A stretch of DNA of 32,393 bases, from positions 2,039-34,431 of the forward strand of contig CAYJDP010000002.1 of assembly GCA_964368975.1 (NCBI GenBank), in the 5' to 3' direction. Source of the DNA: an uncultured Muribaculaceae bacterium. Its GTDB lineage: Bacteria > Bacillota_I > Bacilli_A > RF39 > UBA660. The notes beneath the pieces were generated by a model. The model saw only the letters and a list, made by a program, of their open reading frames with translations, was not told where the DNA came from and ran no database searches. The translations under genes were made by a program, and so were the position numbers. This document shows positions 1,911 to 24,633 of the stretch, piece after piece. How positions within the stretch are numbered: the stretch's first letter is position 1; the number at the start of each line of letters is the position of its first letter.

Positions 1911-2699
1911 ATGTATTGTGCTTATTGTGGTAATTTATTAAAAGAAGATGATACTTTTTGTGGTTCTTGTGGTAGAAAACGTATTACTCCTAATGAAATA
2001 AAGAAAAAGAAAATTATAATATTAGAAGATTCTACTAATAAAGATAATTCTGTGTTATTGAGTAATATTGGGATTGTGTTATTAACTTTAACTTCACTTG
2101 TTGTTTTAATAGTAGTATTATTTGGTACTTATGATTTGAATGATTATATTTCTAATCAGTATAGAAACATTAGAGATTATAAGAATATATCTCTTAGTGG
2201 TATTAATAAATATAATGGAGATATCTATTTAGAAGATTTTGGTATTTCTGATATTAATGATAGTTATGATTATATGTATATTAATGGTGATTATACTAAG
2301 CTTGATACTATTGAAGGATATAGTAATCCTTATAATAATTTATATGATCAAGATAAGTTTGTATTGGGATTTGATAATAATGAATTGATTTTTACAAATA
2401 TTTCTATGGTTTTTGTAGGAAGTGATTCTTTATATAAAAATATTATAAATGAATTAGAGATTGTCGGAGAAAGTTTTTCTATTGATAAGATAGATGAGAA
2501 TATTCTTAAAGAAGCTTATGATGATACATATAAAATTTATTTAGATAATGGTTATTACGTAGAAAGTGAAGAATATAAATATTCTAGTGAAGAATATAAT
2601 TATTTTCTTACAGTTACTATTACTAAAGAAATAGTTAATTTTGATGATATTGATAATATAGATTTATATAAGATTAATTTAGTTCAAATAAAAAAATAA
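1911..2699 (+). CDS. Zinc-ribbon membrane protein (N-terminal CxxC-x12-CxxC, one TM helix, extracytoplasmic D/Y/N-rich domain)
   Basis: AGGAGG lies 6 nt upstream of the ATG, 9 nt after the previous stop. The N-terminus MYCAYCGNLLKEDDTFCGSCG is a classic zinc ribbon. The TM helix is LLSNIGIVLLTLTSLVVLIVVLF. The remainder has no recognisable family. Confidence 0.8.
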   Translation: MYCAYCGNLLKEDDTFCGSCGRKRITPNEIKKKKIIILEDSTNKDNSVLLSNIGIVLLTLTSLVVLIVVLFGTYDLNDYISNQYRNIRDYKNISLSGINKYNGDIYLEDFGISDINDSYDYMYINGDYTKLDTIEGYSNPYNNLYDQDKFVLGFDNNELIFTNISMVFVGSDSLYKNIINELEIVGESFSIDKIDENILKEAYDDTYKIYLDNGYYVESEEYKYSSEEYNYFLTVTITKEIVNFDDIDNIDLYKINLVQIKK

Positions 2700-2750
2700 A
2701 TTTTGAATAATAGTATTATATTTGGATATAATATTGTTAGGAGGGAATTT

Positions 2751-2951
2751 ATGGAAACATTACAAAAGATTGCGTTAGTAGTTACTATTATTGGTGCTAT
2801 TAATTGGGGATTTGTAGGAATACTTGATTTTAATTTAGTAGATACAATTTTTGGAGTAGGTAGTGTGTTTAGTAGAATTATTTATTCTTTAGTTGGTATT
2901 ACTGGATTAATTAATATAGGTATATTATTTAATAAATTAGAATCTATGTAA
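2751..2951 (+). CDS. DUF378-family small membrane protein
   Basis: METLQKIALVVTIIGAINWGFVGILDFNLV... matches my memory of the DUF378 signature (IGAxNWG). AGGAGGG lies 7 nt upstream of the ATG at 2751. The track start at 2703 is a TTG with no RBS. Confidence 0.8.
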   Translation: METLQKIALVVTIIGAINWGFVGILDFNLVDTIFGVGSVFSRIIYSLVGITGLINIGILFNKLESM

Positions 2952-2952
2952 A

Positions 2953-2979
2953 AGACTTAACTTATGTTAAGTTTTTTTA
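2953..2979 (+). terminator. Rho-independent terminator
   Basis: Stem ACTTAAC (2955-2961) pairs with GTTAAGT (2966-2972), loop TTAT, then a T-run. Confidence 0.65.
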
Positions 2980-3022
2980 TTATATAAAAAAAGGGTTATT
3001 ATCTATTCTTTAGAATAGGTGG

Positions 3023-3051
3023 TTGCTAAAATCAGAAAAAAATGTTATCAT
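3023..3051 (+). promoter_or_regulatory. Sigma-A-type promoter of the cdaA operon
   Basis: TTGCTA (3023-3028), 17 nt spacer, TATCAT (3046-3051) preceded by TG (extended -10). It lies inside the track ORF 3019..3258, which argues for a downstream start. Confidence 0.55.
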
Positions 3052-3066
3052 ATTAGGAGAATAGAG

Positions 3067-3258
3067 GTGGAAATTGTGGAAATATTTATTACATTTTTTC
3101 GAGATATATTGGATGGTCCTTTATATATAGTTATTGTTGTAGTTTTTTCCATTTTAATTGCATCTTCTATTGGTTATTTGGGTGAGAGATACTTAGATAA
3201 TAAGAAAAAGAAACAATTTATTAAAAATACTTATGTAGAAGTTAATAATAAGAAATAA
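3067..3258 (+). CDS. Small single-pass membrane protein, unknown function, first gene of the cdaA operon
   Basis: GTG at 3067 is preceded by AGGAGA (3055-3060). The GTG at 3076 is an alternative start. One hydrophobic helix (LYIVIVVVFSILIASSIGYL) and a basic tail. It ends 19 nt before cdaA. Confidence 0.55.
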   Translation: MEIVEIFITFFRDILDGPLYIVIVVVFSILIASSIGYLGERYLDNKKKKQFIKNTYVEVNNKK

Positions 3259-3277
3259 TTAATGTTAGGAGAAAAGT

Positions 3278-4105
3278 ATGAATATTACATTTACAGATAT
3301 AGTTACTGTATTAAGAGATATTGCGGATATTTTGTTAGTATGGTTAATAATTTATTTTATATTAAAAAACATTAAAAATAATGTTAAATTATCTTTAATA
3401 TTTAAAGGGGTTGCGATAGTAGTTTTATTAAAAGTTGTTAGTGATTTCTTTGGGTTTACTACAATTGGAGTTTTATTAGAATATGTTATTCAATGGGGAC
3501 CTATTGCTTTAATTGTAATATTTCAACCAGAGATTAGATCTATTCTTGAACAACTTGGAAGAAGTCAATTACTTGGAAGACATAAAGTTTTAAGTGTTGA
3601 TGAGAGAGAGAGAGTTGTTTATGAGTTAGTAGGTGCAATTGATTATCTTCGTAAAGAGAAGATTGGTGCTTTAATTGTTTTAGAGAGAGATGTTAGTTTA
3701 ATGGATTACATTAATAAGTCTAAGAAGTTATATGCTAATTTAAGTAGTGACTTGTTAATTTCTATTTTTTACAATGGTAATCCTTTACATGATGGTGGTG
3801 TTATAATACAAGGTAATACTATTACTTGTGCGGGAGCTGTTTTTCCAACAAGTGATAGCTCTAAATTAAATAAACGATTAGGTACTAGACATAGAGCGGC
3901 ATTAGGGTTAGCTGAAGAAACTGATGCTATATGTTTAGTTGTATCTGAAGAAACTGGTAGAATTTCGGTTTCTGTATCAGGTGAGTTATTATATAACTTA
4001 ACTATTGATGATGTTAGAATGTTATTAATAGATGAGTTAAGACCTAAGAGAGAAATAGATTTAGATGAAGTGGAAGAGGAAGAAATTTATGAAGAAAATA
4101 ATTAA
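3278..4105 (+). CDS. cdaA: Diadenylate cyclase CdaA (DisA_N/DAC domain, three N-terminal TM helices)
   Basis: Hallmark DAC motifs are present: HDGGVII and GTRHRAALG, with SEETG downstream. The N-terminal TM segments and the size (275 aa) are typical of CdaA/DacA. Confidence 0.95.
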   Translation: MNITFTDIVTVLRDIADILLVWLIIYFILKNIKNNVKLSLIFKGVAIVVLLKVVSDFFGFTTIGVLLEYVIQWGPIALIVIFQPEIRSILEQLGRSQLLGRHKVLSVDERERVVYELVGAIDYLRKEKIGALIVLERDVSLMDYINKSKKLYANLSSDLLISIFYNGNPLHDGGVIIQGNTITCAGAVFPTSDSSKLNKRLGTRHRAALGLAEETDAICLVVSEETGRISVSVSGELLYNLTIDDVRMLLIDELRPKREIDLDEVEEEEIYEENN

Positions 4106-5444
4106 AATATTTATGAAAATTATTCGGCTAATTGGTAATTTCTTTGATAAATGGTTAATTACTCCTATTACTAAATTTATTTTAAATTTCATGAGATTAA
4201 TAAAAGGTAATAATAGAAGTTTTGAATCTTTGTTGAAAAAGAAATCTACTATGATAATTACAAGTTTAATACTTGCATTTGGTATTTTTGTAGTAATAGA
4301 TCAAGAATCTAATATTATAATAGATCAATATGCAGAAATTTTATATAATCAACCGGTTACTGCGTATTATAATGAAGAAAAATATGTTGTAGAGGGTTTA
4401 CCTGATGAAGTAGATATTACTTTAATTGGAGATAGAACTCATATATTTTTAGCTAAGCAGGCTCCTTCTAAAGGTGTATCTGTTGATTTAAATGATTTGG
4501 GTGAAGGAAATCATTCTGTTACTTTAAAATATAATCAGAGACTAGAATCAGTTGAATATAAGTTGGATCCTTCAACTGTTACTGTTACAATTTATGAAAA
4601 AGTTAGTGAGACTATTAGTTTGGATTATGATATCTTAAATCAATCTAAATTAGATTCTAAATTATATATTAATAATGTTAAACTTGATAGAAGTGATGTA
4701 ATTATAAAGGGTGCAGAATATAAATTAGATCAAGTTGCTACTGTTAAAGCTTTAGTTGATGTATTAGAAATTGCTAATGCTGATGAAGGAGAAGTAGAAT
4801 TAAAAGATATTCCTTTAGTTGCATATGATACTAATGGAGAAGTTATTGATGTGGAAATTGTTCCTAATTCAATAAATGCAACTGTAGAAATAACGTCACC
4901 TAATAAAACAGTTCCTGTTAGAATTGTTCCAGTTGGAGATGTTGCTTTTGGTAAATCTATTAAAGAAATTACTACTAGTGTGGATAGTGTTGTAATATAT
5001 GGAGAACAAGAAGCTGTTGATAATTTAGATGAGTTAGAGATTGAAATTGATGTAGATGGTCTTGCTGAAAATAAGAATTATAATGTAACAATTAAGAATC
5101 CTAGTGGTATTACTGATGTATCTAGCAAAAGTATTAGTGTATCTATTATTATGGATGACTCTATTACTAGAGAGTTTGATAATATATCTATAGGTACAGA
5201 GAATTTAGATGATAATTATAAAGTACAAGCATTATCTAAAGAAGATAGTTTAATTACAGTTGTTGTTAGTGGTAGTGAATCTAATGTTAATCTATTAGAT
5301 CCTACATCAATAAAAGCGTATCTTGATTTAGAAGGTTATGGAGTAGGTGAATATGAAGTTCCAGTAATTGTATCTGGTGATGATTTAAAATTAACTTATA
5401 CTTCTAAAACTACAAAAGTTAAAGTACGTATTTCTGAAAAGTAG
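4089..5444 (+). CDS. cdaR: CdaA regulator CdaR (YbbR-like repeat protein)
   Basis: It overlaps the cdaA 3' end (ATG at 4089; the in-frame ATG at 4065 is also possible). N-terminal TM anchor followed by about four beta-rich repeats (V-x-V-x-P-x-x-V type) typical of YbbR domains. The position after cdaA is the canonical one. Confidence 0.85.
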   Translation: MKKIIKIFMKIIRLIGNFFDKWLITPITKFILNFMRLIKGNNRSFESLLKKKSTMIITSLILAFGIFVVIDQESNIIIDQYAEILYNQPVTAYYNEEKYVVEGLPDEVDITLIGDRTHIFLAKQAPSKGVSVDLNDLGEGNHSVTLKYNQRLESVEYKLDPSTVTVTIYEKVSETISLDYDILNQSKLDSKLYINNVKLDRSDVIIKGAEYKLDQVATVKALVDVLEIANADEGEVELKDIPLVAYDTNGEVIDVEIVPNSINATVEITSPNKTVPVRIVPVGDVAFGKSIKEITTSVDSVVIYGEQEAVDNLDELEIEIDVDGLAENKNYNVTIKNPSGITDVSSKSISVSIIMDDSITREFDNISIGTENLDDNYKVQALSKEDSLITVVVSGSESNVNLLDPTSIKAYLDLEGYGVGEYEVPVIVSGDDLKLTYTSKTTKVKVRISEK

Positions 5445-5463
5445 ATTTTTCTACTTTTTTTTA
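5437..5463 (+). terminator. Rho-independent terminator (AT-rich stem)
   Basis: AAAAGTAG (5437-5444) pairs with CTACTTTT (5451-5458), followed by a T-run. The stem is weak but is placed directly at the cdaR stop. Confidence 0.5.
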
Positions 5464-5491
5464 TGTAAATTGATTTTTTTTGTATAGACAA

Positions 5492-5519
5492 TTGACATAT
5501 GGGTATGCTATACTTTAAT
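5492..5519 (+). promoter_or_regulatory. Promoter of the TasA-like fibre operon
   Basis: TTGACA (5492-5497), 16 nt spacer, TTTAAT (5514-5519). An overlapping extended -10, TGcTATACT (5506-5514), is an alternative. Both lie inside the track's N-terminal extension (5499), which supports the ATG at 5538. Confidence 0.5.
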
Positions 5520-5537
5520 AGTAAAGGTAGTGATTAT

Positions 5538-6110
5538 ATGCGTGAGAATACATTAAAGTTTATATTGATAGTTTCAATACTATGTTCGGTGTTTGCTATT
5601 AGTGTATCCTATGCAACATTTTCAGCGTTACTAGTAATTGATGGAACTGCAACAGTTGCCAGTAAAAACTGGAGTATTTATTTTAGTAACTTAGATAGTA
5701 CTAGAATATTTGGTAATGCTGTTGAAGTGGTTAGACCATCTTTTAATAGTGATTCTACAATGTTAAATAATTTTGATGTTGAGTTTTATGCTATGAATGA
5801 TGCTGTTGAATATGAATTTGATGTTGTTAATTCAGGTTCATTTGATGCAATTATTACTACTTTAGATAAATCTACTCCAACTTGTGTTGGTTCTGGTGTT
5901 AATCAGATTGTAGATGAAAATTATGTGTGTAGTCATATAGATTATAGATTATCATATACTGATGGAACTATTGTTGATGTTAATGATACTTTAAATGCAG
6001 GAGAAACTAAAACTGTTATTTTAAGAGTAAGTTATACAGGTAATAATACTCCAACGAATCCAGTAGATATTACTAATCTTAATTTATCTGTGATATATAC
6101 ACAAAATTAA
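5538..6110 (+). CDS. TasA/camelysin/BsaA-like secreted protein with SipW-type signal peptide, paralog 1 (AT-rich copy)
   Basis: N-terminus is basic, then a hydrophobic helix, then SYATFSALLVIDGTATV, resembling the A-A-F-x motif at the TasA cleavage region. Downstream YEFDVVNSGSFDAII resembles the TasA-family PGD...F.(V)xNxGS(L/F)DA block. SD-like AAAGGTAGTGAT lies upstream of the ATG at 5538. Confidence 0.7.
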   Translation: MRENTLKFILIVSILCSVFAISVSYATFSALLVIDGTATVASKNWSIYFSNLDSTRIFGNAVEVVRPSFNSDSTMLNNFDVEFYAMNDAVEYEFDVVNSGSFDAIITTLDKSTPTCVGSGVNQIVDENYVCSHIDYRLSYTDGTIVDVNDTLNAGETKTVILRVSYTGNNTPTNPVDITNLNLSVIYTQN

Positions 6111-6134
6111 ATTCAAAATTTGAGAGGAGATTTT

Positions 6135-6737
6135 ATGAAATCAGAAAAACAAGTAAAAGTTTTAGCAATAGTTGCAATTTTAATTGCAGTGGTAGGATTA
6201 TCTTTAGGGTTTGCTGCATTCTCTGAAACGTTACAAATTAACGGGACTGGGGAAGTTTCAGCTGCTAATTGGGATATTCATTTTGAAAATTTAGCTGCAG
6301 GTGTTACTTCTGGTACAGCTGTTGAAGTTACTGCTCCAGCGATTGATGGAACTACTACAGTAATTGAAGATTATTCAGTAAGATTCCAAACTCCAGGCGA
6401 TTCTATTAGTTATAGTTTTGATGTTGTAAATGGTGGATCTTTTGATGCTGAAATTACATCTTTATCAGAGTTAGCTACTATTCCAGTTTGTACTGGTGTT
6501 AATGCTACTACTGGATTAGTAGATGGTACTAACGTTTGTGATAACTTAGTTTATACATTAACTTATGCTGATTTAACTCCAGTTGCAGTTACTGATACAT
6601 TAGCATCAGGGGCAACTGCAAGTATGGTTTTAACACTTACTTATACAGGTGCTGTTGTTACTGATCCTTCGTTACTACCAGCAGATACTGTTAATATTAC
6701 AGGTCTTGGTGTAACAATGGTTTATACTCAAGATTAA
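6135..6737 (+). CDS. TasA/camelysin/BsaA-like secreted protein with SipW-type signal peptide, paralog 2 (likely major subunit)
   Basis: GAGGAG lies 7 nt before the ATG at 6135. It contains LGFAAFSETLQINGTGEV and PGDSISYSFDVVNGGSFDAEI. It is collinear with paralog 1, including two conserved Cys and the C-terminal VYTQ(N/D). It is visibly richer in GCT/GCA/GGT/ACT codons than its neighbours. Confidence 0.75.
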   Translation: MKSEKQVKVLAIVAILIAVVGLSLGFAAFSETLQINGTGEVSAANWDIHFENLAAGVTSGTAVEVTAPAIDGTTTVIEDYSVRFQTPGDSISYSFDVVNGGSFDAEITSLSELATIPVCTGVNATTGLVDGTNVCDNLVYTLTYADLTPVAVTDTLASGATASMVLTLTYTGAVVTDPSLLPADTVNITGLGVTMVYTQD

Positions 6738-6776
6738 TATTTATATTTATAGGGAAAAATATTTGGAGGCGCTATT

Positions 6777-7901
6777 ATGAAGACTAGTCATATTAAATTG
6801 ATATTAATAGAAGTAGTTTTAGTTGTACTGGTTCTTTTGAATATTTTTTTCTCTATAATTACTAATGTATTTTTAGTTAATATTATTTTAGCTTTATTTT
6901 GTGGTTTAATAATTTTTTTATTAGGATTTGAAAAGGAACGAGGTCGTTATAAAACGGATATGATTATGTCTGTTGTTATAGTAACTTTTATTTTTCAAAT
7001 TATATATTTTGTTTCAGGTCTTATTTTTGGATATTTAAAAAGTGGATATAGTTTAGAATTTGTTGATATAATAATGAATATACTACCATTATTAATTACT
7101 ATTTTTGTGTGTGAAGTTTTTAGATATTCAATTAATAGAAAAGGGGATAACTCTGTAATAGTATTGATTTTATCAGTTGTATTATTTACATTGATAGATA
7201 TTATGTTACAGATTATTATTATAGGTAATATTTCTAAAGTTAATTTATTTGATTTAGTTGGTAATGTTATATTTTTTAGTGTATCTAAAAATATTTTATT
7301 GACTTATATGACTACTAAAATTGGATATTCTCCAGCTATAGTTTTTAGATTAATTATGGAACTACCTATTTATATTTTACCGATTATTCCTAATATTAAT
7401 GAGTATTTTGATACTGTAATTATGTTTATATTTCCTTTTATAGTGTTATATATATTTAATAAAACTTATACTAAGATAAAAAAAGAAGTTGTAGTTTCTA
7501 GGAAGAAATATAAGTTCGCCTCTTATATAATGATTTTATTAATTATTTTTATAGTATTTTTTACAAGTGGGGTTTTTAGATTTTATGCTTTAAGTATAGG
7601 ATCAGGTTCTATGGAACCAAATATAGATACTGGAGATATTGTTATCGTTGATAAAGGTATTTCTATAGATTCAATTAAAGAGGGAGACGTTTTAGTCTAT
7701 AATAAATTTAATAAGGTTGTTGTTCATAGGGTTATTGAAGTAGTTGATAATGGTAAAGATATTATTTTTTATACTAAAGGAGATAACAATGATGAAGATG
7801 ATAATTATGTAGTTGTTGAAGATGAAGTAATTGGTAAGACTTTATTTAGAGTTAGATTTTTAGGTTATCCAACTTTATGGTTTAATGAAATTCTTACTTA
7901 G
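6777..7901 (+). CDS. Type I signal peptidase (S26, ER/archaeal/SipW-type Ser-His) fused to a roughly 255 aa N-terminal polytopic membrane domain
   Basis: The C-terminal roughly 115 aa carry GSGSMEP (Ser278, codon 7608-7610), VVVHRV (His317, codon 7725-7727) and TKGDNN, the SipW/Sec11-type boxes. The N-terminal 255 aa form about 7-8 hydrophobic helices with no recognised motif. GGAGG RBS is present. Confidence 0.8.
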   Translation: MKTSHIKLILIEVVLVVLVLLNIFFSIITNVFLVNIILALFCGLIIFLLGFEKERGRYKTDMIMSVVIVTFIFQIIYFVSGLIFGYLKSGYSLEFVDIIMNILPLLITIFVCEVFRYSINRKGDNSVIVLILSVVLFTLIDIMLQIIIIGNISKVNLFDLVGNVIFFSVSKNILLTYMTTKIGYSPAIVFRLIMELPIYILPIIPNINEYFDTVIMFIFPFIVLYIFNKTYTKIKKEVVVSRKKYKFASYIMILLIIFIVFFTSGVFRFYALSIGSGSMEPNIDTGDIVIVDKGISIDSIKEGDVLVYNKFNKVVVHRVIEVVDNGKDIIFYTKGDNNDEDDNYVVVEDEVIGKTLFRVRFLGYPTLWFNEILT

Positions 7902-7920
7902 ATAGTTTGGGGTGATAAGA

Positions 7921-9030
7921 ATGAGACAAGTTAAGTATGAAGGTTTTGAGAAACAATTTGTTGTAAAAAGAAAAATTAAAAGAAGTTTTATTAAGAAAAC
8001 TATTTTAATTTTTCTTACAATTATTCTATTTTATCTTTCTGTTTTAGCAGGTTTATATACATTTAAAGTGGAAAATGATTATATTGGTTATAATGAAAAA
8101 GGTACTATTGATTATAAGGTTTATTTAAAAGATAATAGTTATTACGGTGAAGAGTTTTTCACTAAAAGTGATAATATGTCTTTTGTTTCTAATTTAATTA
8201 AAACTATTAATGTAGATTTTATATATGAAATTAGTGCATTAGAAGAAATTACTAATAGTTATGATTATAATATTTCTGCTGAATTGTTTATATATGATAA
8301 AGATGATCAAACAAAAGTTTTGTATTCGGATAAAGAAATATTAAAAGAAGTTAATGTTGATAGTTTTGATAAAAATAAGTATATTGTTAAAGATAGTATA
8401 GATGTAGATTATGATTATTATAATGAACAGGTATTAAACTTTAAAAAAGATTATTCATTATCTGTTATTAGTGAGTTAATTCTTACAATGAATGTTCAAT
8501 CTAAATTAGAGGTAAATGGAAATAGTTCTTCTAATAATAGCGATATTAAAGTTAGTATTCCATTAACTGTTCAAACGTTAGATATTAATATGGCTACTAG
8601 CGAATTTAATAATCCTTTAAAATTAGGTAGTACAATTAGTAATGTTAATTTTTTTAATATTATGATATTTAGTATTTTGTGTTTATTAACAATAATAACT
8701 ATTACATTATTTTTCTTAGTATCTAGAAATGTTAAGAAAGATATTTATCAACAGACAATTAAAAAATATTTAAGACAGTATGATAGAGTAATTATTGCTA
8801 GTAAACAACCAAATCTTAATGAAGCAAGATTTGATCAAAAAATTAGAATTATGTCTATTGAGGAGTTAATAGATGCTCATGATACTTTAGGTAAACCTAT
8901 ATTATATTATGAAGTAGTTCCTAACGAGAAGAGTTATTTTATTATAATTGCTGATGGTGTTTTATATAAACTTACTATTAGTAGAGCTTATTTAGAAAAG
9001 CAAGAAATGGAAAAAAAGGCTAGTTTATAG
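7921..9030 (+). CDS. Two-TM membrane protein, DUF5305-like (large extracytoplasmic loop, roughly 100 aa cytoplasmic C-terminal domain)
   Basis: ATG at 7921 follows GGGGTGA; the GTG at 7912 is also possible. TM1 is ILIFLTIILFYLSVLAGLYTF and TM2 is IMIFSILCLLTIITITLFFLV. The architecture and the position next to a SipW-type peptidase match my recollection of DUF5305 proteins. The family assignment is from memory, not a search. Confidence 0.6.
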   Translation: MRQVKYEGFEKQFVVKRKIKRSFIKKTILIFLTIILFYLSVLAGLYTFKVENDYIGYNEKGTIDYKVYLKDNSYYGEEFFTKSDNMSFVSNLIKTINVDFIYEISALEEITNSYDYNISAELFIYDKDDQTKVLYSDKEILKEVNVDSFDKNKYIVKDSIDVDYDYYNEQVLNFKKDYSLSVISELILTMNVQSKLEVNGNSSSNNSDIKVSIPLTVQTLDINMATSEFNNPLKLGSTISNVNFFNIMIFSILCLLTIITITLFFLVSRNVKKDIYQQTIKKYLRQYDRVIIASKQPNLNEARFDQKIRIMSIEELIDAHDTLGKPILYYEVVPNEKSYFIIIADGVLYKLTISRAYLEKQEMEKKASL

Positions 9031-9040
9031 TCTTTTTTTT
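9015..9040 (+). terminator. Possible weak terminator
   Basis: AAGGCTA pairs with TAGTCTT (one G-U pair), followed by T8. Confidence 0.35.
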
Positions 9041-9094
9041 GTAATAATTTAATTCATTAATAATATATTTAATTAGAAAGTGGAGGTATTATTA

Positions 9095-10195
9095 ATGAAA
9101 AAGTTATTTGTAATATTTAGTTTATCTTTATTATTAGTAGGATGTGGTAGTTATGGTGAAAACGATGTTTTATATGATTTGAATGAAATGAATGATGATA
9201 TGGAAGCTTATGTTGCTACTGGTACTTTAGATATTTTAAATAATGATCAAATGTATAATTACGATGTTGAAGTTAGTTATAAGAAAGGGGATTATTATAG
9301 AGTTATTTTAACTAATACTGATAATAAATATACTCAAATTATTCTAAAAAATGATGAAGGAGTTTTTGTACTTACGCCTGCTTTAAACAAGAGTTTTAAA
9401 TTTCAAAGTGAGTGGCCTTATTCTGATTCACAGAGCTATATAATTTCTTCAATTATTGCAGATATTGATAGTGATAAAGATAGGGAATATAAAGAAGTTG
9501 ATAATGGATATGAATTTATTACAAAAATTAATTATCCGAATAATGATAAATTAGTTAGACAAAAGATTTTATTAGATAAAGAATTAAGTGTTAAAGAAGT
9601 TACAGTATATGATTCTAATGATGTAGAAATTTTAAAAATGAGTTTTTCTAATATTGATTATGAACCTAATTTTTTAGATGATCATTTTGATTTAGAGGCT
9701 ATTATGAAAGAGTTTGCACCTGAGGAAGAATTAGTAGAGGACAATAGTGAAGAAAATAATAATGCTCAAGATGAGACAGTTGATGAAGATAGTGTCGAAG
9801 AAGAACAGGATAAAGCAGAAGAAGATACTGAAATTGATAGTGAGGTTACTGGTTTATTAGAAGATTCAATATATCCTTTGTTTATACCAGATGGTACTAA
9901 ACTAGTTAGTGAAGAAGAAATTGTTATGGATGATGGTAAGCGTATTATTATGACGTTTGATGGAGAAAAGTCGTTTCTATTAGTTCAAGAAACAGTTAAA
10001 GCAGAGGATGAAATGGTAGTTATTCCTACTTTTGGAGAACCTTATCAACTTTTAGATACTCTTGGGGTTATGACAGATAATTCACTTACATGGCATACTG
10101 GTGGAGTTGAATATTATATTGTCAGTGATGTTTTAAGTACTAATGAATTAATTGAAGTTGCTCAATCTATTAGTGTTTTACCTACTATGAAGTAA
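9095..10195 (+). CDS. Lipoprotein: LolA-like (lipoprotein-sorting-fold) N-terminal half, acidic linker, DUF4367-like C-terminal domain
   Basis: MKKLFVIFSLSLLLVGC-GS is a clear lipobox, with GGAGG upstream of the ATG at 9095. The N-terminal half resembles COG2834/YdcC-type proteins. The linker is E/D-rich (EEELVEDNSEENNNAQDE...). The C-terminal ...GVEYYIVSDVLSTNELIEVAQSI resembles DUF4367 ends. Domain calls are from memory. Confidence 0.6.
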   Translation: MKKLFVIFSLSLLLVGCGSYGENDVLYDLNEMNDDMEAYVATGTLDILNNDQMYNYDVEVSYKKGDYYRVILTNTDNKYTQIILKNDEGVFVLTPALNKSFKFQSEWPYSDSQSYIISSIIADIDSDKDREYKEVDNGYEFITKINYPNNDKLVRQKILLDKELSVKEVTVYDSNDVEILKMSFSNIDYEPNFLDDHFDLEAIMKEFAPEEELVEDNSEENNNAQDETVDEDSVEEEQDKAEEDTEIDSEVTGLLEDSIYPLFIPDGTKLVSEEEIVMDDGKRIIMTFDGEKSFLLVQETVKAEDEMVVIPTFGEPYQLLDTLGVMTDNSLTWHTGGVEYYIVSDVLSTNELIEVAQSISVLPTMK

Positions 10196-10219
10196 AAAAG
10201 AGTTTACCTCTTTTTTTTA
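10195..10219 (+). terminator. Rho-independent terminator
   Basis: AAGAG (10198-10202) pairs with CTCTT (10208-10212), extended by A/T pairs, followed by T8. Confidence 0.5.
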
Positions 10220-10246
10220 CTATGATATAATTAAAGGGGTGATAAT

Positions 10247-10744
10247 ATGAAAAAGGAAAACAATTCAAAATTAAGTGTAGATAAAGATATTAGAGGGGTA
10301 CTTATAACAATTGGAGTAGTATTTTTATTTATAACTGTATTCTATTTTATTTCTTTATATTTAAATAATAGTGATAGTATAGATTATAGTAGTACTGAAG
10401 GTGAAGCTTATATACAATATGATGAAATATTAGCTGGATCTAGTTTTACTATTAACGAAGGTGAATATATAGTAGTTTATTATGATAAAATGAACGAAGA
10501 GTATGCTTCTAATTTATATTCTACTATTGCAAATTATCAATTATTAGATGATAGTTTAAGAATATACAGTGTAGATATGAGTGATGATATTAATAAAAAT
10601 TATTTGGCAGATGAATCTACATTGGATGTGGATAATGTTAATGATTTGAAAATTAATGATGCTACTTTAATTAAATTTAATAATGGAGAAATAGTAGAAT
10701 CAGTTACTAGTAGTGATTCAATTGTAGAGTACTTAAATAAATAA
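10247..10744 (+). CDS. N-terminally anchored exported protein, unknown function (possibly a thioredoxin-like fold without CxxC)
   Basis: GGGGTGA RBS and one TM helix (VLITIGVVFLFITVFYFISLYL). The beta-alpha-beta style pattern (YIVVYYDK ... IYSVDMSD ... TLIKFNNGEIVE) is reminiscent of a Trx fold, but there is no Cys. Confidence 0.6.
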   Translation: MKKENNSKLSVDKDIRGVLITIGVVFLFITVFYFISLYLNNSDSIDYSSTEGEAYIQYDEILAGSSFTINEGEYIVVYYDKMNEEYASNLYSTIANYQLLDDSLRIYSVDMSDDINKNYLADESTLDVDNVNDLKINDATLIKFNNGEIVESVTSSDSIVEYLNK

Positions 10745-10766
10745 CTTCTTTTAGAAGTTTTTTATT
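10743..10766 (+). terminator. Rho-independent terminator
   Basis: AACTTCT (10743-10749) pairs with AGAAGTT (10753-10759), followed by a T-run. Confidence 0.6.
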
Positions 10767-10816
10767 TTTATATTAAGAAATTTATGTTATTATAGATATA
10801 GAGCGTAGAGGTGGAT

Positions 10817-12028
10817 ATGAAATACAAAATAAAAAATAACATGAAAAAATTCGTTAAAAGTAAAGATACTTTTACAATGATTGAAGTTGTAATAATAATA
10901 ATAGTAGCTATGATATTAGGGGTTTCTATAGGGGCGGTAATATCTTATCATAATAGTTTTGATGATAATAATATACAAGAGTTTATTGATACTTACAATG
11001 ATATTTCGAATAATTATTATGATGAAGTAGATAAAAATTTATTAATTGAATATGCGATTGCAGGAATGATTGAATCATTAGATGATCCTTATTCTGAGTA
11101 TTTAGATATAGAAGAAAGTGAATCTTTTAACCAAAGTGTAAATGGTAACTATGTTGGTATTGGTACTACTGTTGGTGTAAGTGTAGATGGTGTTGCTTAT
11201 ATATTAGGAGTATTTGAAAATTCTCCTGCTAGTGAAGTTGGTTTAGAAGTTAATGATATTATTTTAAAAATCGACGAAGAAGATGTTAGTAATACAGATA
11301 TGGATACGTTAACTGGATTAATAAAAGGTGAAGAAAATACTAAAGTAACACTTCTTATTAAAAGGGGTGATGAAGAACTATCTTTTGAATTGGAAAGAGC
11401 AGTAGTAGATTTACCATCTGTTACTAACGAAGTTATTGAAGAAGATGGTAAAAAAATTGGAGTATTAAGTGTATCAATGTTTGCTGCAAATACATATGAT
11501 CAATTTGAAGAACAATTAAATGAATTAGAAGATCAAGATATTGAATCTTTGATAATTGATGTTAGAGGTAATCCAGGAGGTCATTTAACCCAAGTTAGTG
11601 ATATGCTCTCATTGTTCTTAAATGAAGGCGATATATTATATCAACTAGAAACAAAAGGTAAAATTGAAAAATATAAAGATGAAACTGAAGAAAGTAGAAA
11701 CTATCCTATAGTAGTTTTAGTTGATGGTTCTTCAGCTTCTGCTTCTGAATTATTTACTGTAGGATTAAAAGAATCTTATGAAAAAATAGATATTATAGGT
11801 GTTAATACTTATGGTAAAGGTTCTGTTCAAGAAGCTTATGATTTAGATTCTGGTTCTACATATAAATATACTGTGCAAAAGTGGTTATCTCCAGAAGGGA
11901 ATTCTATAGATGAAGTTGGAGTTGCACCTACTGAAGAAGTTGTTTTGGATGAAATATATTTTACTGATCCAACTATAGAAAATGACAATCAATTTCAAAA
12001 GGCTTTAGAAATTTTAAAAAACAAATAA
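10817..12028 (+). CDS. S41 family C-terminal processing peptidase with PDZ domain (Ctp-like)
   Basis: It contains VRGNPGGHL and DGSSASASE (the S41 catalytic Ser box), a PDZ-like GLEVNDIILKIDEEDV segment and the Lys region YGKGSVQ. AGAGGTGG lies upstream of the ATG at 10817. Confidence 0.9.
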   Translation: MKYKIKNNMKKFVKSKDTFTMIEVVIIIIVAMILGVSIGAVISYHNSFDDNNIQEFIDTYNDISNNYYDEVDKNLLIEYAIAGMIESLDDPYSEYLDIEESESFNQSVNGNYVGIGTTVGVSVDGVAYILGVFENSPASEVGLEVNDIILKIDEEDVSNTDMDTLTGLIKGEENTKVTLLIKRGDEELSFELERAVVDLPSVTNEVIEEDGKKIGVLSVSMFAANTYDQFEEQLNELEDQDIESLIIDVRGNPGGHLTQVSDMLSLFLNEGDILYQLETKGKIEKYKDETEESRNYPIVVLVDGSSASASELFTVGLKESYEKIDIIGVNTYGKGSVQEAYDLDSGSTYKYTVQKWLSPEGNSIDEVGVAPTEEVVLDEIYFTDPTIENDNQFQKALEILKNK

Positions 12029-12049
12029 GAGTCTAGATAGACTCTTTTA
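12027..12049. terminator. Bidirectional terminator between convergent genes
   Basis: AAGAGTCT (12027-12034) pairs with AGACTCTT (12039-12046), with A/T runs on both sides. It overlaps both stop codons. Confidence 0.6.
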
Positions 12050-12584
12050 ATTTACTTATTATTACTAGTTGTTGATTTTCTATATTGCTACACGTTGTTA
12101 AAATAAGATTTGTTTCATTATTTTTTTTAATTTCAATATTTCCATCTTTTATTTGGTTACTTATAGAATTTATTTGATATGTATATGTTATACTGTTATG
12201 ATTTAAATATATTAAATCATTTTCTTTTATGTTAAATAATTCATTGAAGTATGCTGTATTTCCTTCGCCGGAGTGTGCCGCTAAATAAATATTAGTATTT
12301 GGTATTGGTGGTATAGTAGAGTCACTTAATATTTCTACGTTTTTTTCTACAGTATTTTCATTACTAATAGGGTCATACAGTAAATATGTTTTATTATTTA
12401 TTGTTAATGTTGCAATACTAGTTATTGGGTTTTTCAATTTTTTTTGCTCTTCATTTATTTCTGTTAATTTAGGTGTAGATATAGTATTTTCTAATGGTTT
12501 GATTTTAGAAATACTATTTTCATTTATGTTTATATTAAATATATTAATAATTATTAGAAAGATTAGGGTTATTTTTTTTAACAT
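12033..12584 (-). CDS. Sortase-family transpeptidase, atypical (no Arg anywhere in the protein)
   Basis: N-terminal TM anchor, His box IYLAAHSGEG, and Cys box LILTTCS (Cys165, codon 12090-12092). The protein contains no arginine. The position where the catalytic Arg normally follows the TLxTC box reads NIENQQLVIISKL. It overlaps the upstream adhesin gene by 41 nt. Confidence 0.8.
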   Translation of the reverse strand: MLKKITLIFLIIINIFNININENSISKIKPLENTISTPKLTEINEEQKKLKNPITSIATLTINNKTYLLYDPISNENTVEKNVEILSDSTIPPIPNTNIYLAAHSGEGNTAYFNELFNIKENDLIYLNHNSITYTYQINSISNQIKDGNIEIKKNNETNLILTTCSNIENQQLVIISKLKESI

Positions 12585-14001
12585 AACATATTCCTATACA
12601 AATTATTAAAGAAATTAAAGAGATTGTAGATTTTTTAGTTGTATTAGTATCAGGTACTGGTATTTTATAATCATATAATTCGATTGTTTCTGGATTGTTA
12701 TCTTCTATTATTATTTTAAAATCATCTGTTTCTTTATATCCAGCAGTTGTATTTAATTGTTTAACTGTATAAGTTCCATAAGGTAAGTTAGCTGTTGCGA
12801 TACCTAAATTATTTGTTGTAATAGTCTCTACTAAGGTGTTTTTGTTATTATATATTTCAAATGAAATATTTTCTTCTGGTATAAAGTTATTAGTAGTACC
12901 ATAGTATTTTTTTAGAGTTATTTCTTTTTCTATAACTTTATTTTCTACAGTTAATTCTATATTTGTGTTATCTTGTCTTGGAAATACTTCATAGATTGTT
13001 TCATTTAGAGTGTAACCGATTCCTGCTTTTATTTCTTTTATATAATATTTTGCGTATTGAATATCATTTATTATAGTTTGATTATTTTCATCAATTGTTA
13101 CTTGATAAAGTTCATTCATTTGATTATCGTATACTTGATATACTGAGCCTATAAGTGATGCTTCTCCACTAGGAGTTATACTATTAGTATCTTTATCTAT
13201 TTTTGTTATTTTTATTTCTGTATTTTTAACTGCTACATTAAATGATATATTAATAGCCGGTATATCACCTACAGTCATTAATGTTTGTGATGTATTTGAT
13301 TGATAATAAATAATTGGTTTATTATATGCTGGTTTATTTTTTGTTAGTGTTATAGTTTCGATTCCACTAGAGATAGGATTTATTGTTATTGTATCTTTGC
13401 TAATAGTTGCATTGTTTGATGTTACTGTATATTCACTTAATCCTGAATACGATATATTTACTAAATTGTTTGCTGCACTATAATAAGTTTTACCATCAAT
13501 ATTATTTTTCGTTGTATAATTGTTAATTAAATTATTTATTTCGTTTATTTCATTATTAAATGGTTCTATTCTTTGACCGTTTAAAGTTTGTGTAAAATAA
13601 TAGTCTGCATTAGGATCTGCTACTTGCCATATCATTAATTGTGTTATTGCATACCATTTTGAATCAGTATGATTTTGATATCCATATCCAAAATGAGATA
13701 TAAGTGCTATTTTATTTTGTTGTTCAATAGTTAAATTATTTGGATTGAAAGTTGGTGTATAAACTGAATTAGCATTAAACATTACAAATGGCTCTATACA
13801 ATATGCATGTTGATTAGAGTGATTTTCTCTTACTATTTTACCTGTTAAATAATAAGTTATTCCGGCCTTTTCTTTATTTAAATACACTCCAGGAATTGTT
13901 TCTGCTTCATAAAAAGTAGTTGATTCTGCTTTTACATTTATATTATTAGTAAAAGATAATACTGCTACAATTATTATTAAGAAAATATTTATTTTTTTCA
14001 T
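12544..14001 (-). CDS. Cell-wall-anchored adhesin: signal peptide, thioester (TED/TQXA-like) domain, two CnaB/SpaA-type domains, C-terminal sorting signal VPDTN
   Basis: AAGGAGGAA RBS and signal peptide MKKINIFLIIIVAVLSF...VKA. AYCIEP (Cys68, codon 13798-13800) and AITQLMIWQ (Gln121) fit the TED motifs [YFL]C-hydrophobic-[DENQ] and TQxA-hydrophobic-W. Two segments are typical of CnaB folds: IKITKIDKD...GSVYQVYD...YYIKEIKAGIGY and YGTYTVKQLNTTAGY. The tail is VPDTN (12643-12657), then a hydrophobic helix, then KK. Confidence 0.85.
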   Translation of the reverse strand: MKKINIFLIIIVAVLSFTNNINVKAESTTFYEAETIPGVYLNKEKAGITYYLTGKIVRENHSNQHAYCIEPFVMFNANSVYTPTFNPNNLTIEQQNKIALISHFGYGYQNHTDSKWYAITQLMIWQVADPNADYYFTQTLNGQRIEPFNNEINEINNLINNYTTKNNIDGKTYYSAANNLVNISYSGLSEYTVTSNNATISKDTITINPISSGIETITLTKNKPAYNKPIIYYQSNTSQTLMTVGDIPAINISFNVAVKNTEIKITKIDKDTNSITPSGEASLIGSVYQVYDNQMNELYQVTIDENNQTIINDIQYAKYYIKEIKAGIGYTLNETIYEVFPRQDNTNIELTVENKVIEKEITLKKYYGTTNNFIPEENISFEIYNNKNTLVETITTNNLGIATANLPYGTYTVKQLNTTAGYKETDDFKIIIEDNNPETIELYDYKIPVPDTNTTKKSTISLISLIICIGICYVKKNNPNLSNNY

Positions 14002-16924: not shown

Positions 16925-17659
16925 TTAAGGAGTTATTGTTGTATCTGTTTCTGGTGTAGTTGGTATTTCTGGTTCTACATCTGGAATTACAGGTGATACT
17001 TCAACTTCTGGTTGTACTGGTAGATTTGGTTCATATACATCTATTGTTCCTGTATACATTCTATTATTATATGTTACTGTATATTGATATGTACCTGCTA
17101 TATTTGTATTTACTTTAGTAATATCTAAAGTAATTAAATTTATTATTTCTGGTGTTAATACTTCTGCAATATAAGTAGATAATTCTTTTGATAAAATAGT
17201 ATTAGTTTCTACAGATAAAGATTTTAGTGTTAATGTATCTATTGAATTTTGTTCTTCATCTATTACTGTTACTTGTCCATTATAAATTGTTTTATCTTTT
17301 ATAATGGTATATGTATATATTCCTGCTTGATTAGGATTTACATCTGAAATGTTTAATTCTAAATCATTGATTAATTCACTATCTAGTAAATTACCATCTA
17401 CTAAATAATCCATTACATTAATACTTAGTTGTTCTCCTGTTTTTATTTCTATTTCTTTTAATATTATTTCATTTGAAGAGTTAGTTGAAACTCTTTTTTG
17501 TGTTATATTTATTGTTTTTACAATATCTTCAGTTATTGGTTTATCTATTATTAACATAGTTGTACCACTACCTATGAATATTAATCCCCAAGTAGTAATA
17601 GCTCCTATAATCATAAATTTATTTTTAGTAGATAAATCTTTATATTTAATTATTTTCAT
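16925..17659 (-). CDS. N-terminally anchored surface protein with two tandem Ig-like repeats and a Pro/Glu/Thr-rich C-terminal tail
   Basis: GAGGGA RBS and TM helix FMIIGAITTWGLIFIGSGTTMLII. Two roughly 80 aa repeats end in ...NQAGIYTYTIIKDKTIYNGQVTVIDE and ...NIAGTYQYTVTYNNRMYTGTIDVYEP. The tail is PVQPEVEVSPVIPDVEPEIPTTPETD. Confidence 0.75.
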   Translation of the reverse strand: MKIIKYKDLSTKNKFMIIGAITTWGLIFIGSGTTMLIIDKPITEDIVKTINITQKRVSTNSSNEIILKEIEIKTGEQLSINVMDYLVDGNLLDSELINDLELNISDVNPNQAGIYTYTIIKDKTIYNGQVTVIDEEQNSIDTLTLKSLSVETNTILSKELSTYIAEVLTPEIINLITLDITKVNTNIAGTYQYTVTYNNRMYTGTIDVYEPNLPVQPEVEVSPVIPDVEPEIPTTPETDTTITP

Positions 17660-22394: not shown

Positions 22395-22427
22395 AAATAG
22401 CAATACTATAAAGTGTTGCTATTTTTA
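22395..22427. terminator. Bidirectional terminator
   Basis: AATAGCAATAC (22396-22406) pairs with GTGTTGCTATT (22413-22423), one G-U pair, followed by a T-run. Confidence 0.65.
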
Positions 22428-23428
22428 TATCTTGATAATTCTGCTATTTCTAGAGTAATTAATTCTTTGTTATCTTTATCATTTAATATTATACGAGTAT
22501 TTGGATAATCGCTTTTATAAGTGGAAGAAATATATCCTTTTATTTTAATATTTAGTATTTCTAAATTAAAAGTATAGTCACTTAATAAATTATTAGTGGT
22601 TTTAGTTTCAAAAATTGTATTGTGATAATATGCTGCTAGTAATATATCCTCGTTTATGTTTTGGTTATGTATAATTTTATAATAGTTATTTAATCCTAAA
22701 ATAATGTCATCAATTAATTTTTGATTATCTGATGGATTAAAGTTTTCTTGTTGATAAAGTATATATAATTTATTTATATTATTAATTAACGTTGTAGCAT
22801 TAGATAAGTCATTATCTATTTTTAGTAATTCGTCTATTATGATACTTATTTTTGGGTTATATCGAAATTCTTTTATTGATTCGATGTCTATTATTTCTGA
22901 TAGTGTATAAATAATAGGCATTAGGTTGCTATATCCATTTCCTTGTTTACTGTTATATTCGTTTGTATATAATTGATTAGTTAGTTCTATTAATAAGTGT
23001 TCTGTTGTTGAGTAGTTGTTGTAATTAGTTAATAAGTGAGCATTTTCATGATAAATAGATTCAGATGTCTGATTATAAATTGTTATATTATTTTGATATC
23101 TATTATATTCTCCACCTACTAATTTGTTTGTTTCTTTATAATCAATTGTTACTGTATTAAATATTTCTTTTATTGAGGTGAAACTAATATATTTTTGATT
23201 TTCTATTATTTCTGTTTGTAATAATAATAGATTTTCTTTTTCTAATGGCGTTAAGTTAATATTTGTATTTATGGCAGTGATTAAATCTTCTATATTTTTT
23301 TCTTCTTTATTAATAGTTGTAATATTAGAAGAAATTGAATCCATATAATATTTCATTTCTATAGGTCTTTGATATATAAATGCTGATATTATAAGAATTA
23401 TTATTGAAAATATTATTGTTTTTTTCAT
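22406..23428 (-). CDS. Exported protein with conserved HExxH core, putative zincin-like metallopeptidase, paralog A
   Basis: GAAAGGA RBS and signal/anchor MKKTIIFSIIILIISAFIY. The core is GGEYNRYQNNITIY...YHENAHLLTNYN (HENAH at 23036-23050), with conserved Glu at +12 and +17 after the second His. It is collinear with the upstream paralog. Confidence 0.6.
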   Translation of the reverse strand: MKKTIIFSIIILIISAFIYQRPIEMKYYMDSISSNITTINKEEKNIEDLITAINTNINLTPLEKENLLLLQTEIIENQKYISFTSIKEIFNTVTIDYKETNKLVGGEYNRYQNNITIYNQTSESIYHENAHLLTNYNNYSTTEHLLIELTNQLYTNEYNSKQGNGYSNLMPIIYTLSEIIDIESIKEFRYNPKISIIIDELLKIDNDLSNATTLINNINKLYILYQQENFNPSDNQKLIDDIILGLNNYYKIIHNQNINEDILLAAYYHNTIFETKTTNNLLSDYTFNLEILNIKIKGYISSTYKSDYPNTRIILNDKDNKELITLEIAELSRYKNSNTL

Positions 23429-23439
23429 ATAAATCCTTT

Positions 23440-24573: not shown

Positions 24574-24604
24574 AAATTTTCCCCTGACGTTTTTGATAGG
24601 GCAT

Positions 24605-24633
24605 ATTATATCATAAATTGTCTGTAAAATCAA
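24605..24633 (-). promoter_or_regulatory. Sigma-A-type promoter of the HExxH paralog pair
   Basis: On the minus strand: TTGATT (24633-24628), 17 nt spacer, TATAAT (24610-24605). Confidence 0.6.

Follow-up and report, generated by a model that had tools for sequence, protein, structure and literature searches.

In the Tafi systems of Haloarcula and Natrinema, the genes for the pilins TafA and TafE are clustered with those for a signal peptidase, TafD, and a DUF5305 protein, TafG (PMC11821415; PMC12337348). Deletion of tafD abolishes both TafA processing and fimbriae (PMC11821415); strand donation has been shown by cryo-electron microscopy (cryo-EM), and Sec-dependent versions occur in the Thermococcales and Archaeoglobales (PMC11821415; PMC12337348). 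AbpX-like loci are present in archaea (AbpX of Pyrodictium abyssi), Bacillota and Chloroflexota, and hold minor-subunit paralogues, a signal peptidase I with ten transmembrane (TM) helices, and a DUF5305 'accessory' protein composed of an outside beta-sandwich, two TM helices and a cytoplasmic domain; their subunits are acidic with a conserved donor strand, and AbpX itself is a donor-strand fibril protein characterised by cryo-EM (bioRxiv 10.64898/2026.01.04.697558). The sipW-bsaABCRSD genes of Clostridium perfringens provide SipW-dependent secretion of a self-polymerising matrix protein of ~23 kDa, and the BsaA polymers are resistant to sodium dodecyl sulphate (SDS) and formic acid, with intermolecular isopeptide bonds (PMC7395162; PMC11580942). 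Here we describe a block of four genes, P1 to P4, at positions 5538-9030 of a 32,393-nucleotide stretch of DNA (the window) from contig CAYJDP010000002.1 of an uncultured bacterium, and compare it with these systems.

We consider it fairly likely that P1-P4 form an operon that makes a surface or matrix fibre, or pilus, built by donor-strand complementation and belonging to the TasA superfamily (AbpX/Tafi type). P1 and P2 are a new, unnamed family inside an already described kind of system. All four of the open reading frames (orfs) that a first-pass annotation of this DNA had placed here are confirmed; they are co-directional, with spacers of 19-39 nucleotides (nt) and a Shine-Dalgarno-like motif ahead of each likely start. 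Because the stop codons of P1-P4 are all TAA or TAG, their reading is independent of the genetic code. The 369-amino-acid (aa) form of P4 is the recorded version, and the mechanically listed orfs of 203 aa and 205 aa have starts that fall within the promoter-like region or an intergenic spacer. The genes and their parts are as follows.

5538-6110, + strand: P1, ATG at 5538, pre-protein of 190 aa.
5616-5675, + strand: predicted mature N-terminal extension of P1, TFSALLVIDGTATVASKNWS; residues 1-20 of the mature model lie outside any beta-sheet (DSSP); candidate donor strand.
6135-6737, + strand: P2, ATG at 6135, pre-protein of 200 aa.
6216-6269, + strand: predicted mature N-terminal extension of P2, AFSETLQINGTGEVSAAN; model residues 29-47 are coil (DSSP); candidate donor strand, with the pattern of AbpX QWSETLSLSATI.
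6777-7901, + strand: P3, ATG at 6777, 374 aa.
6777-7511, + strand: N-terminal domain of P3, approximately residues 1-245, with ~9 hydrophobic TM helices by hydropathy.
7512-7901, + strand: catalytic domain of P3, a signal peptidase I of the endoplasmic reticulum (ER)/archaeal (Sec11/SipW) type, with SGS278MEP, H317R and GD336NN.
7921-9030, + strand: P4, ATG at 7921, 369 aa.

P1 and P2 are paralogues (39% identity, E 3e-47), as first proposed. Each begins with a basic n-region, MRENTLK in P1 and MKSEKQVK in P2, followed by a hydrophobic stretch of ~19 residues (hydropathy 2.4-2.8) and then a conserved site; there is no RR motif, and the signal peptides are of the Sec type. With a slash marking the cut, P1 is predicted to be cleaved at SYA26/T27FSALLVIDGTATV, giving a mature protein of 164 aa with an isoelectric point (pI) of 4.05 and two cysteines, and P2 at LGFA27/A28FSETLQINGTGEV (GFA/AFSETLQINGTG), giving 173 aa, pI 4.05 and two conserved cysteines. 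The cysteine pair is kept in ~80% of the P1/P2 family; mature P2 lacks lysine and contains just one arginine. The two C-terminal sequences are ...VYTQD and ...IYTQN, with neither an LPXTG motif nor a TM sorting signal.

The N-terminal motifs singled out by the first-pass annotation are real, and form the best-conserved stretch of a 220-member family alignment: the alanine at -1 (A27) is present in 214 of the 220 sequences, L33 in 219, I35 in 215 and G37 in 200. The family pattern (n=220) is (G/A/V)-(F/Y/W)-A / (A/S)-(F/L/M)-(S/T)-x-x-L-x-I-x-G-x-(A/G)-x-V....W-x-(I/V)-x-F, in which the site obeys the -3/-1 rule of signal peptidase I and the alternating L-x-I-x-G-x-A-x-V is near-invariant. Position 2 of the mature N-terminus is F, L or M and position 4 is mostly T, Q or R across the family; at position 4 an acid is present in P2 (A-F-S-E) and absent from P1 (T-F-S-A). 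AF2 models of full-length P2 and mature P1 have high confidence (predicted local distance difference test, pLDDT, 90.6 and 93.6, respectively), and both are beta-sandwiches with one short helix. The first 18-20 mature residues of P1 and P2, though the best conserved, belong to no sheet in either monomer model.

P3 has a Ser-His signal peptidase domain of the Sec11 type, as the first-pass annotation had it. Its C-terminal 130 residues match TIGR02228 with 98.2 bits against a cut-off of 51.85 (E 4.3e-28), and a profile of 32 P3 homologues finds human SEC11A/C at E 3.5e-18 versus LepB-type enzymes at E values of at least 0.06. The match to the Bacillus SipW equivalog NF046067 scores 82.3 bits, and its cut-off of 190 is not reached. 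S278, H317 and D336 are invariant in the 32 homologues, and there is no catalytic lysine. The enzyme is a fusion, again as described at first, with a hydrophobic N-terminal extension of ~245 residues. This domain, for which no Pfam or PDB family was matched, has invariant polar or charged residues (E113, R116, K122, D141 and N172) as well as invariant P202, P205 and Y210 among the 32 homologues, and is kept in all orthologues (matches of 5e-14 to 2e-54). More than 120 clusters of homologues, 352-395 aa long, share the whole architecture, as do 18 loci. From its loops rich in lysine and arginine (K/R), one of which is cytoplasmic and precedes the catalytic domain, that domain is predicted to lie outside the membrane; the 9-TM domain may do more than anchor the enzyme. 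The earlier view that the operon joins substrates with a dedicated SipW/Sec11-type peptidase holds.

P4 is a two-TM protein by hydropathy, as had been stated, with a K/R-rich N-terminus inside, TM1 at residues 30-48, ~200 aa outside, TM2 at 252-270 and a cytoplasmic tail of ~100 aa; the inner flanks are K/R-rich. It was thought to be uncharacterised, a description that we revise. P4 itself has no direct Pfam match, even at E <= 10, and is 43% identical (E 4e-79) to the product of positions 9805-10914 in a related locus (L001), which matches PF17231 at 3e-18. Ten of ten P4 orthologues match PF17231 above its cut-off, those of 43% identity scoring 48-80 bits. Judged by these homologues, P4 is a diverged two-TM protein of the DUF5305 family and no orphan; its extreme, AT-driven composition probably explains why it escapes the Pfam model, a reminder that annotation pipelines will miss it. 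By analogy, P4 is a candidate TafG-like accessory subunit of the signal peptidase.

Related loci were searched for with an alignment of 12 closer family sequences, and 25 were examined, 24 from GTDB species representatives and one on a 1.0-Mb ENA contig. The four-gene block proves to be syntenic in relatives: in 18 of the 25 loci, one to seven P1/P2-like genes are followed by the fused multi-TM peptidase gene (~375-395 aa) and then by the DUF5305 gene, in constant order. Loci with two small genes have the P1-type first and the P2-type second, the P1-type lies upstream of the P2-type in at least 11 loci, and single-copy loci keep the P2-type. The P2-type, found in every syntenic locus, is the candidate major subunit, and the P1-type a candidate accessory or minor subunit. 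The flanks of the related loci are unrelated, and neither cdaR nor the lipoprotein gene that border the block here recur. All of the loci have 24-31% G+C, are labelled 'Bacilli bacterium', 'Tenericutes' or similar, and originate in the guts of humans, rabbits and other hosts; Candidatus Faecisoma, which is classed in Mycoplasmatota, supplies one of the peptidase homologues.

An extreme expansion is seen in a metagenome-assembled genome from rabbit gut (L024, positions 2197-9686), where the peptidase and DUF5305 genes come after a tandem array of seven P1/P2-like genes (181-201 aa). Longer paralogues are present in five loci (L001, 10948-12363; L021, 6989-8389; L022, 4758-6059; L023, 6998-8431; and L025, 6962-8704) and as proteins P0145, P0176 and P0186. 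They retain the signal peptide, the AAFSxTLxIxG strand and the first beta-sandwich, to which are added an FGE-sulfatase/lectin-like domain (a weak match), a GDSL lipase, or two to seven DUF6273 repeats; in L001 the longer paralogue is directly 3' of the DUF5305 gene. These proteins are candidate tip or decorating subunits.

In a word-indexed search the P2 family comprises 113 clusters at 90% identity, all annotated 'hypothetical' and nearly all without a Pfam domain. Representatives at 50% identity that match the family number 1,324 at E <= 1e-30 and 9,423 at E <= 1e-3, the latter figure being inflated by DUF7507/DUF11 repeat proteins. A literature search found no paper on the P1/P2 family in gut Bacilli.

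The relationship of P1 and P2 to TasA was assessed by verifying the TasA sequence against the PDB, collecting and aligning its family, and comparing alignments with hhalign. The PDB fibre chain 8aur_A begins at TasA A28 (AFND...), and TasA is therefore cut at TWA/AFND. The cleavage contexts GFA/AFSE of P2, SYA/TFSA of P1, TWA/AFND of TasA and TYA/QWSETLSLSATI of AbpX were compared, and the resemblance to TasA that the first-pass annotation had noted is real; a SipW-class context (A/AFND-like) is thus found with an adjacent gene for an ER-type signal peptidase. With hhalign, a 42-sequence profile of the P1/P2 family aligns with TasA at a probability of 14% (E 0.0019, 86 columns) and a 220-sequence profile at 84% (E 7.7e-6, 85 columns); the alignment spans just the signal peptide, the cleavage site and the PGD..N.G block, which are aligned in register. 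Against AbpX the hhalign probability is 88-92% (E ~1e-6) across 158-171 columns, close to the whole length, and HMMER gives E 1.8e-7 in a single comparison. BLASTP of P2 against AbpX gave nothing significant (E 0.85), and a metagenome scan for AbpX relatives gave no confirmed match.

Family models and single-sequence searches give less. Pfam returns nothing for P1 and, for P2, DUF7507 alone (E 0.008); neither protein reaches the threshold of any Pfam or NCBIfam model, the gathering threshold of PF12389 (Peptidase_M73) included. Searches of PDB chains with the P2 sequence and with the family profile returned nothing meaningful, and no TasA (8aur, 5of1). When 42 family members were scanned singly, sub-threshold matches were seen to PF12389 in 13 (best E 0.0016), DUF11 in 12, DUF7507 in 12 and TIGR01451 in 19, so that Peptidase_M73 is the commonest sub-threshold Pfam family. 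The BsaA model TIGR04090 has sub-threshold matches in four of the 42 (best E 0.027), its cut-off not being reached. P1 and P2 are unmatched by TIGR04088, the SipW-cognate signal peptide class, at E <= 0.1 or <= 1, although HMMER filters may drop matches as short and weak as these. Neither TapA nor TIGR04087 is matched by any of P1-P4, in agreement with the original remark that there is no TapA-like gene, and one of the 42 members matches at chance level (E 0.066).

The family profile has as its top match a protein of 4825 aa (P0114) in which Pfam recognises DUF7507 38 times together with DUF11, the repeats having a weak Peptidase_M73 signal. P0114 and the 5697-aa P0229 contain 24-38 tandem copies of a domain that matches positions 65-194 of the family profile. 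From these giant-protein repeats, the TasA-like PGD..N.G beta-sandwich and the DUF11-type repeats look related. The first-pass annotation saw a TasA-like block in the cores of both small proteins, and this stands in part: PGD is present in P2, P1 reads MNDAVEYEFDVVNSGSFDA, and the block is a hallmark of beta-sandwich repeats of the DUF11/DUF7507/CARDB type and not specific to TasA.

In Foldseek searches against the PDB, the best-ranked neighbours of both models are dominated by donor-strand pilins, including AbpA (7ueg_A, E 0.013, probability 0.95), the TasA fibre (8aur_A, E 0.018, probability 0.97, TMq 0.39) and also FimI/FimA, PapK/G/H and CS20. The similarity to TasA-type proteins that was first suggested is supported at a weak, suggestive level by hhalign and by Foldseek (E ~0.01-0.02), without a family match at threshold. 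On these profiles P1 and P2 appear to fall outside both TasA proper (Peptidase_M73) and BsaA, to which the first-pass annotation had likened them; they may plausibly belong to the wider TasA superfamily, with AbpX as the nearest member.

The following steps are envisaged. P1 and P2 would be exported by Sec as pre-proteins and cut by P3 after the invariant alanine, at SYA/TF in P1 and GFA/AF in P2, with P3 held in the membrane by its ~9 helices, probably with the DUF5305 protein P4 as accessory subunit. The cut would free the conserved amphipathic N-terminal strand (xFSxTLxIxGTAxV), which lies outside the subunit's own beta-sandwich, and the freed strand would enter a neighbouring subunit by donor-strand complementation to give non-covalent, acidic filaments. 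P2-type proteins would be the major subunit and P1-type proteins minor or adaptor subunits, and the longer paralogues encoded elsewhere, with the N-terminal module plus passenger domains, may be tip or decorating subunits. In favour of this reading are the module conserved in 18 of 25 loci, the peptidase type with its invariant catalytic residues, the three-part composition shared with the characterised Tafi and AbpX-like systems, the cleavage site and strand motif, the profile matches to AbpX and TasA, the pilin-dominated Foldseek ranking, and an AbpX-like size, pI and cysteine pair.

Several observations weigh against such a fibre. When the signal peptide is removed, the hhalign probability falls to 9-38% over 27-28 columns for TasA, covering the PGD..N.G block only, and to 17-22% for AbpX; a large share of the profile signal is thus contributed by the signal peptide and the surroundings of the cleavage site, and because of this drop to ~20% membership of the AbpX clade is not claimed. 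The score of the mature-only AbpX alignment, on the other side, is 26-30, above the maximum of 15-20 for shuffled sequences. All of the Foldseek matches are weak (best E 0.009, none at E <= 0.001, TM-scores <= 0.39) and many are to generic beta-sandwiches. The core matches the DUF11/DUF7507 repeats of giant non-pilus surface proteins better than it does Peptidase_M73. The acidic residue at mature position 4 that serves AbpX in Ca-dependent assembly is present in P2, absent from P1 and unconserved in the family. The window has no anchor or tip gene, and the accessory role of DUF5305 is a proposal from the literature (PMC11821415; PMC12337348; bioRxiv 10.64898/2026.01.04.697558).

The main rival is a reading in which P1 and P2 are monomeric secreted or surface beta-sandwich proteins, acting as adhesin, binding or coat modules of the DUF11/CARDB/DUF7507 type, with P3 and DUF5305 needed for their processing and no fibre formed. 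We regard this as possible, if on the whole unlikely. The core matches 37-38 tandem DUF7507 repeats of the 4825-aa protein, and DUF11 and TIGR01451 are the sub-threshold matches of 12-19 of the 42 members scanned; Foldseek also returns carbohydrate-binding modules and appendage domains, and the fusion of the N-terminal module to enzymes such as the GDSL lipase could mean that it serves for display or anchoring. It gives no reason, however, for conservation being strongest in an N-terminal segment that the fold does not include and whose hydrophobic residues alternate, for the one to seven tandem paralogues per locus, or for a gene composition matching that of the characterised fibre loci.

It is quite improbable that the N-terminal segment stays uncleaved, P1 and P2 being type II membrane-anchored surface proteins and P3 having other substrates. 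In its favour, the h-region is long (~19 residues, hydropathy 2.4-2.8), and cleavage of P1 and P2 is itself a prediction; but alanine occupies -1 in 214 of 220 sequences with G, A or V at -3, the motif that follows is common to the mature N-termini of TasA and AbpX, and the peptidase gene is strictly linked to the P1/P2 genes. Still more improbable is a bona fide orthologue of the tapA-sipW-tasA or sipW-bsaA operons, including covalent isopeptide polymerisation like that of BsaA. The cleavage motif and PGD..N.G block in register with TasA favour it, as do the weak Peptidase_M73, TIGR04090 and TapA matches in some family members, yet it failed on the defining features tested: PF12389, TIGR04090 and NF046067 (82 versus 190 bits) are all under threshold, there is no TapA, and the peptidase has nine extra TM helices and a DUF5305 partner. 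A BsaA-type polymer was rejected because mature P2 has no lysine, which makes lysine-based isopeptide links impossible. Finally, the notion that P1 and P2 are pilins, either type IV pilin- or pseudopilin-like or assembled by sortase, prompted by small, abundant-looking proteins with a conserved N-terminus containing G-F and E and by a sortase gene 3 kb away, can practically be dismissed, the former since the hydrophobic stretch is N-terminal to the conserved G(F/Y)A site instead of coming after it and a prepilin peptidase is absent, the latter since the C-termini lack a sorting signal, and P2 has no pilin-motif lysine and the linked peptidase is a signal peptidase I.

By sequence, P1-P4 are one operon unit, bracketed by putative AT-rich terminator hairpins. 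The elements around the genes are:

5437-5465 (approximate), + strand: AT-rich hairpin (AAAAGTAGA/TCTACTTTT) with T-run, just 3' of the cdaR stop; dG -8.3 kcal/mol in an RNAfold scan.
5485-5520, + strand: promoter-like region, TAGACA-18-TGcTATACT (10/12 match, extended -10 TG), or TTGACA(5492)-17-TTTAAT as read from the sequence.
9015-9043 (approximate), + strand: AT-rich hairpin with T-run overlapping the P4 stop; dG -6.6 kcal/mol in an RNAfold scan.

The first hairpin is likely a terminator that separates the block from cdaA-cdaR, and was missed by the consensus terminator scan because this demands three G-C pairs; the second is likely the terminator of the four-gene unit. A scan for hairpins with T-runs found none internal to the P1-P4 block. 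The original proposal of one promoter and no internal terminator thus agrees with what is found, the hexamers at 5485-5520 being promoter-like by their match to the consensus.

The window has ~25% G+C. Upstream of the block are cdaA (3278-4105, with a DAC domain) and cdaR (4065-5444, with YbbR repeats), which overlap by 41 nt. The usual arrangement in Firmicutes is cdaA-cdaR-glmM, and no candidate for glmM is present among the Pfam matches in the window. Downstream, positions 9095-12028 encode a lipoprotein (9095-10195; a weak GerS/LolA-like match, E 3e-6, far under the cut-off), a membrane protein of 165 aa and an S41 peptidase that is CtpB-like and has a PDZ domain. Of these three, the lipoprotein served as query. 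Both it and cdaR were considered as parts of the system and rejected, with no match in any related locus.

On the minus strand at 12033-14001, a sortase gene (183 aa; PF04203) overlaps the gene for a 485-aa surface protein that has a thioester domain (TED) and SpaA prealbumin-like domains and ends ...VPDTNTTKK followed by a hydrophobic tail. The two make up an adhesin or pilin module of their own, dependent on sortase and lying 3 kb from the block; its presence shows that this is an organism with a cell wall. The bulk of the window has a strongly positive GC skew, 0.3-0.5 in the majority of 1-kb bins, and the plus strand carries most of the genes, as expected for a leading-strand segment. Stop codons in the window are TAA (19), TAG (8) and TGA (1). 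Orfs of 551, 244, 340 and 397 aa (246-1901, 16925-17659 and 22406-24633) have no Pfam match at E <= 0.001 (E <= 0.0001 for those of 340 and 397 aa).

The P1/P2 family is annotated at present as 'hypothetical protein' and has no Pfam model, and this analysis supplies it with a name and a testable function. If P1 and P2 do form fibres, TasA-superfamily bundling pili would extend to abundant uncultured gut bacteria with genomes of ~1-1.3 Mb; because such genomes keep few surface structures, the fibre would likely be important for gut attachment or life in biofilms. With this block and its relatives there are more bacterial cases in which a putative pilin, a multi-TM Sec11-type peptidase and a DUF5305 protein occur as a trio; DUF5305 may be a bacterial counterpart of the accessory subunits of the eukaryotic signal-peptidase complex. 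A bolder suggestion, which we offer tentatively and think rather doubtful, is that a large unnamed donor-strand fibre clade (at least 1,300 full-length clusters at 50% identity with E <= 1e-30, possibly several thousand) serves small-genome, low-GC Bacilli of human and animal guts as their principal organelle of adhesion or matrix, with the P3 9-TM domain and its invariant polar residues, together with DUF5305, forming an assembly platform in the membrane that couples cleavage to strand exchange and loads passenger subunits (lipase, lectin-like and DUF6273) onto the fibre.

Among known systems, one likeness is with the chaperone-usher pilins (FimA/FimI and PapK/H/G) and AbpA (7ueg), which share an Ig-like or jelly-roll subunit with an N-terminal extension for donor-strand complementation. 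There is no chaperone or usher here, the organism is of Gram-positive type and the similarity is weak (E 0.01-0.1, TM-scores < 0.45), and this is an analogy of mechanism, not a demonstrated homology. The sipW-bsaABCRSD operon of C. perfringens likewise contains paralogous accessory secreted proteins, but differs in that mature P2 is free of lysine, P1-P4 include no two-component system and TIGR04090 is below threshold.

Parallels can also be drawn with tapA-sipW-tasA of B. subtilis, where an ER-type peptidase is encoded with its substrates, the A/AF(N/S)(D/E) context and PGD..N.G(S) block are shared, and TasA fibres (8aur) assemble by donor-strand exchange. The P1-P4 block differs from it in having no TapA, SipW is small with neither a 9-TM domain nor a DUF5305 partner, and P1 and P2 are under the Peptidase_M73 threshold and ~60 residues shorter than TasA.

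In Tafi loci, as in the P1-P4 block, pilin genes adjoin genes for a dedicated S26 signal peptidase and DUF5305. Tafi pilins mostly have Tat signals, whereas the n-regions of P1 and P2 are of the Sec type and lack RR; TafD combines four TM helices with an extra C-terminal domain, whereas P3 has ~9 N-terminal TM helices; and Tafi loci additionally encode TafB, TafC and TafF. No sequence match was seen between P1/P2 and DUF1102 or Tafi pilins.

The likeness to AbpX extends to the proteins themselves. Mature AbpX has 163 aa and a pI of ~4, compared with 164 and 173 aa and pI 4.05 for P1 and P2, a cysteine pair is present in both, and the donor-strand motif A/QWSETLSLSAT resembles A/AFSETLQINGT of P2. 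Paralogues, a many-TM signal peptidase I of the TIGR02228 type and a DUF5305 gene are found in both kinds of locus, and P4 has the same architecture as its AbpX-locus counterpart. The differences are that the cysteine spacing is not the same, the position-4 acid is unconserved in the P1/P2 family, the P1-P4 block is without an SLH or LPXTG anchor and without a regulator, and the hosts are low-GC, small-genome gut Bacilli. The first-pass annotation called the composition of the operon non-standard; it is the same as that of the Tafi and AbpX-like loci reported in 2025-2026, and P1-P4 are therefore an uncharacterised member of a recognised kind of locus and not an odd variant of tapA-sipW-tasA.

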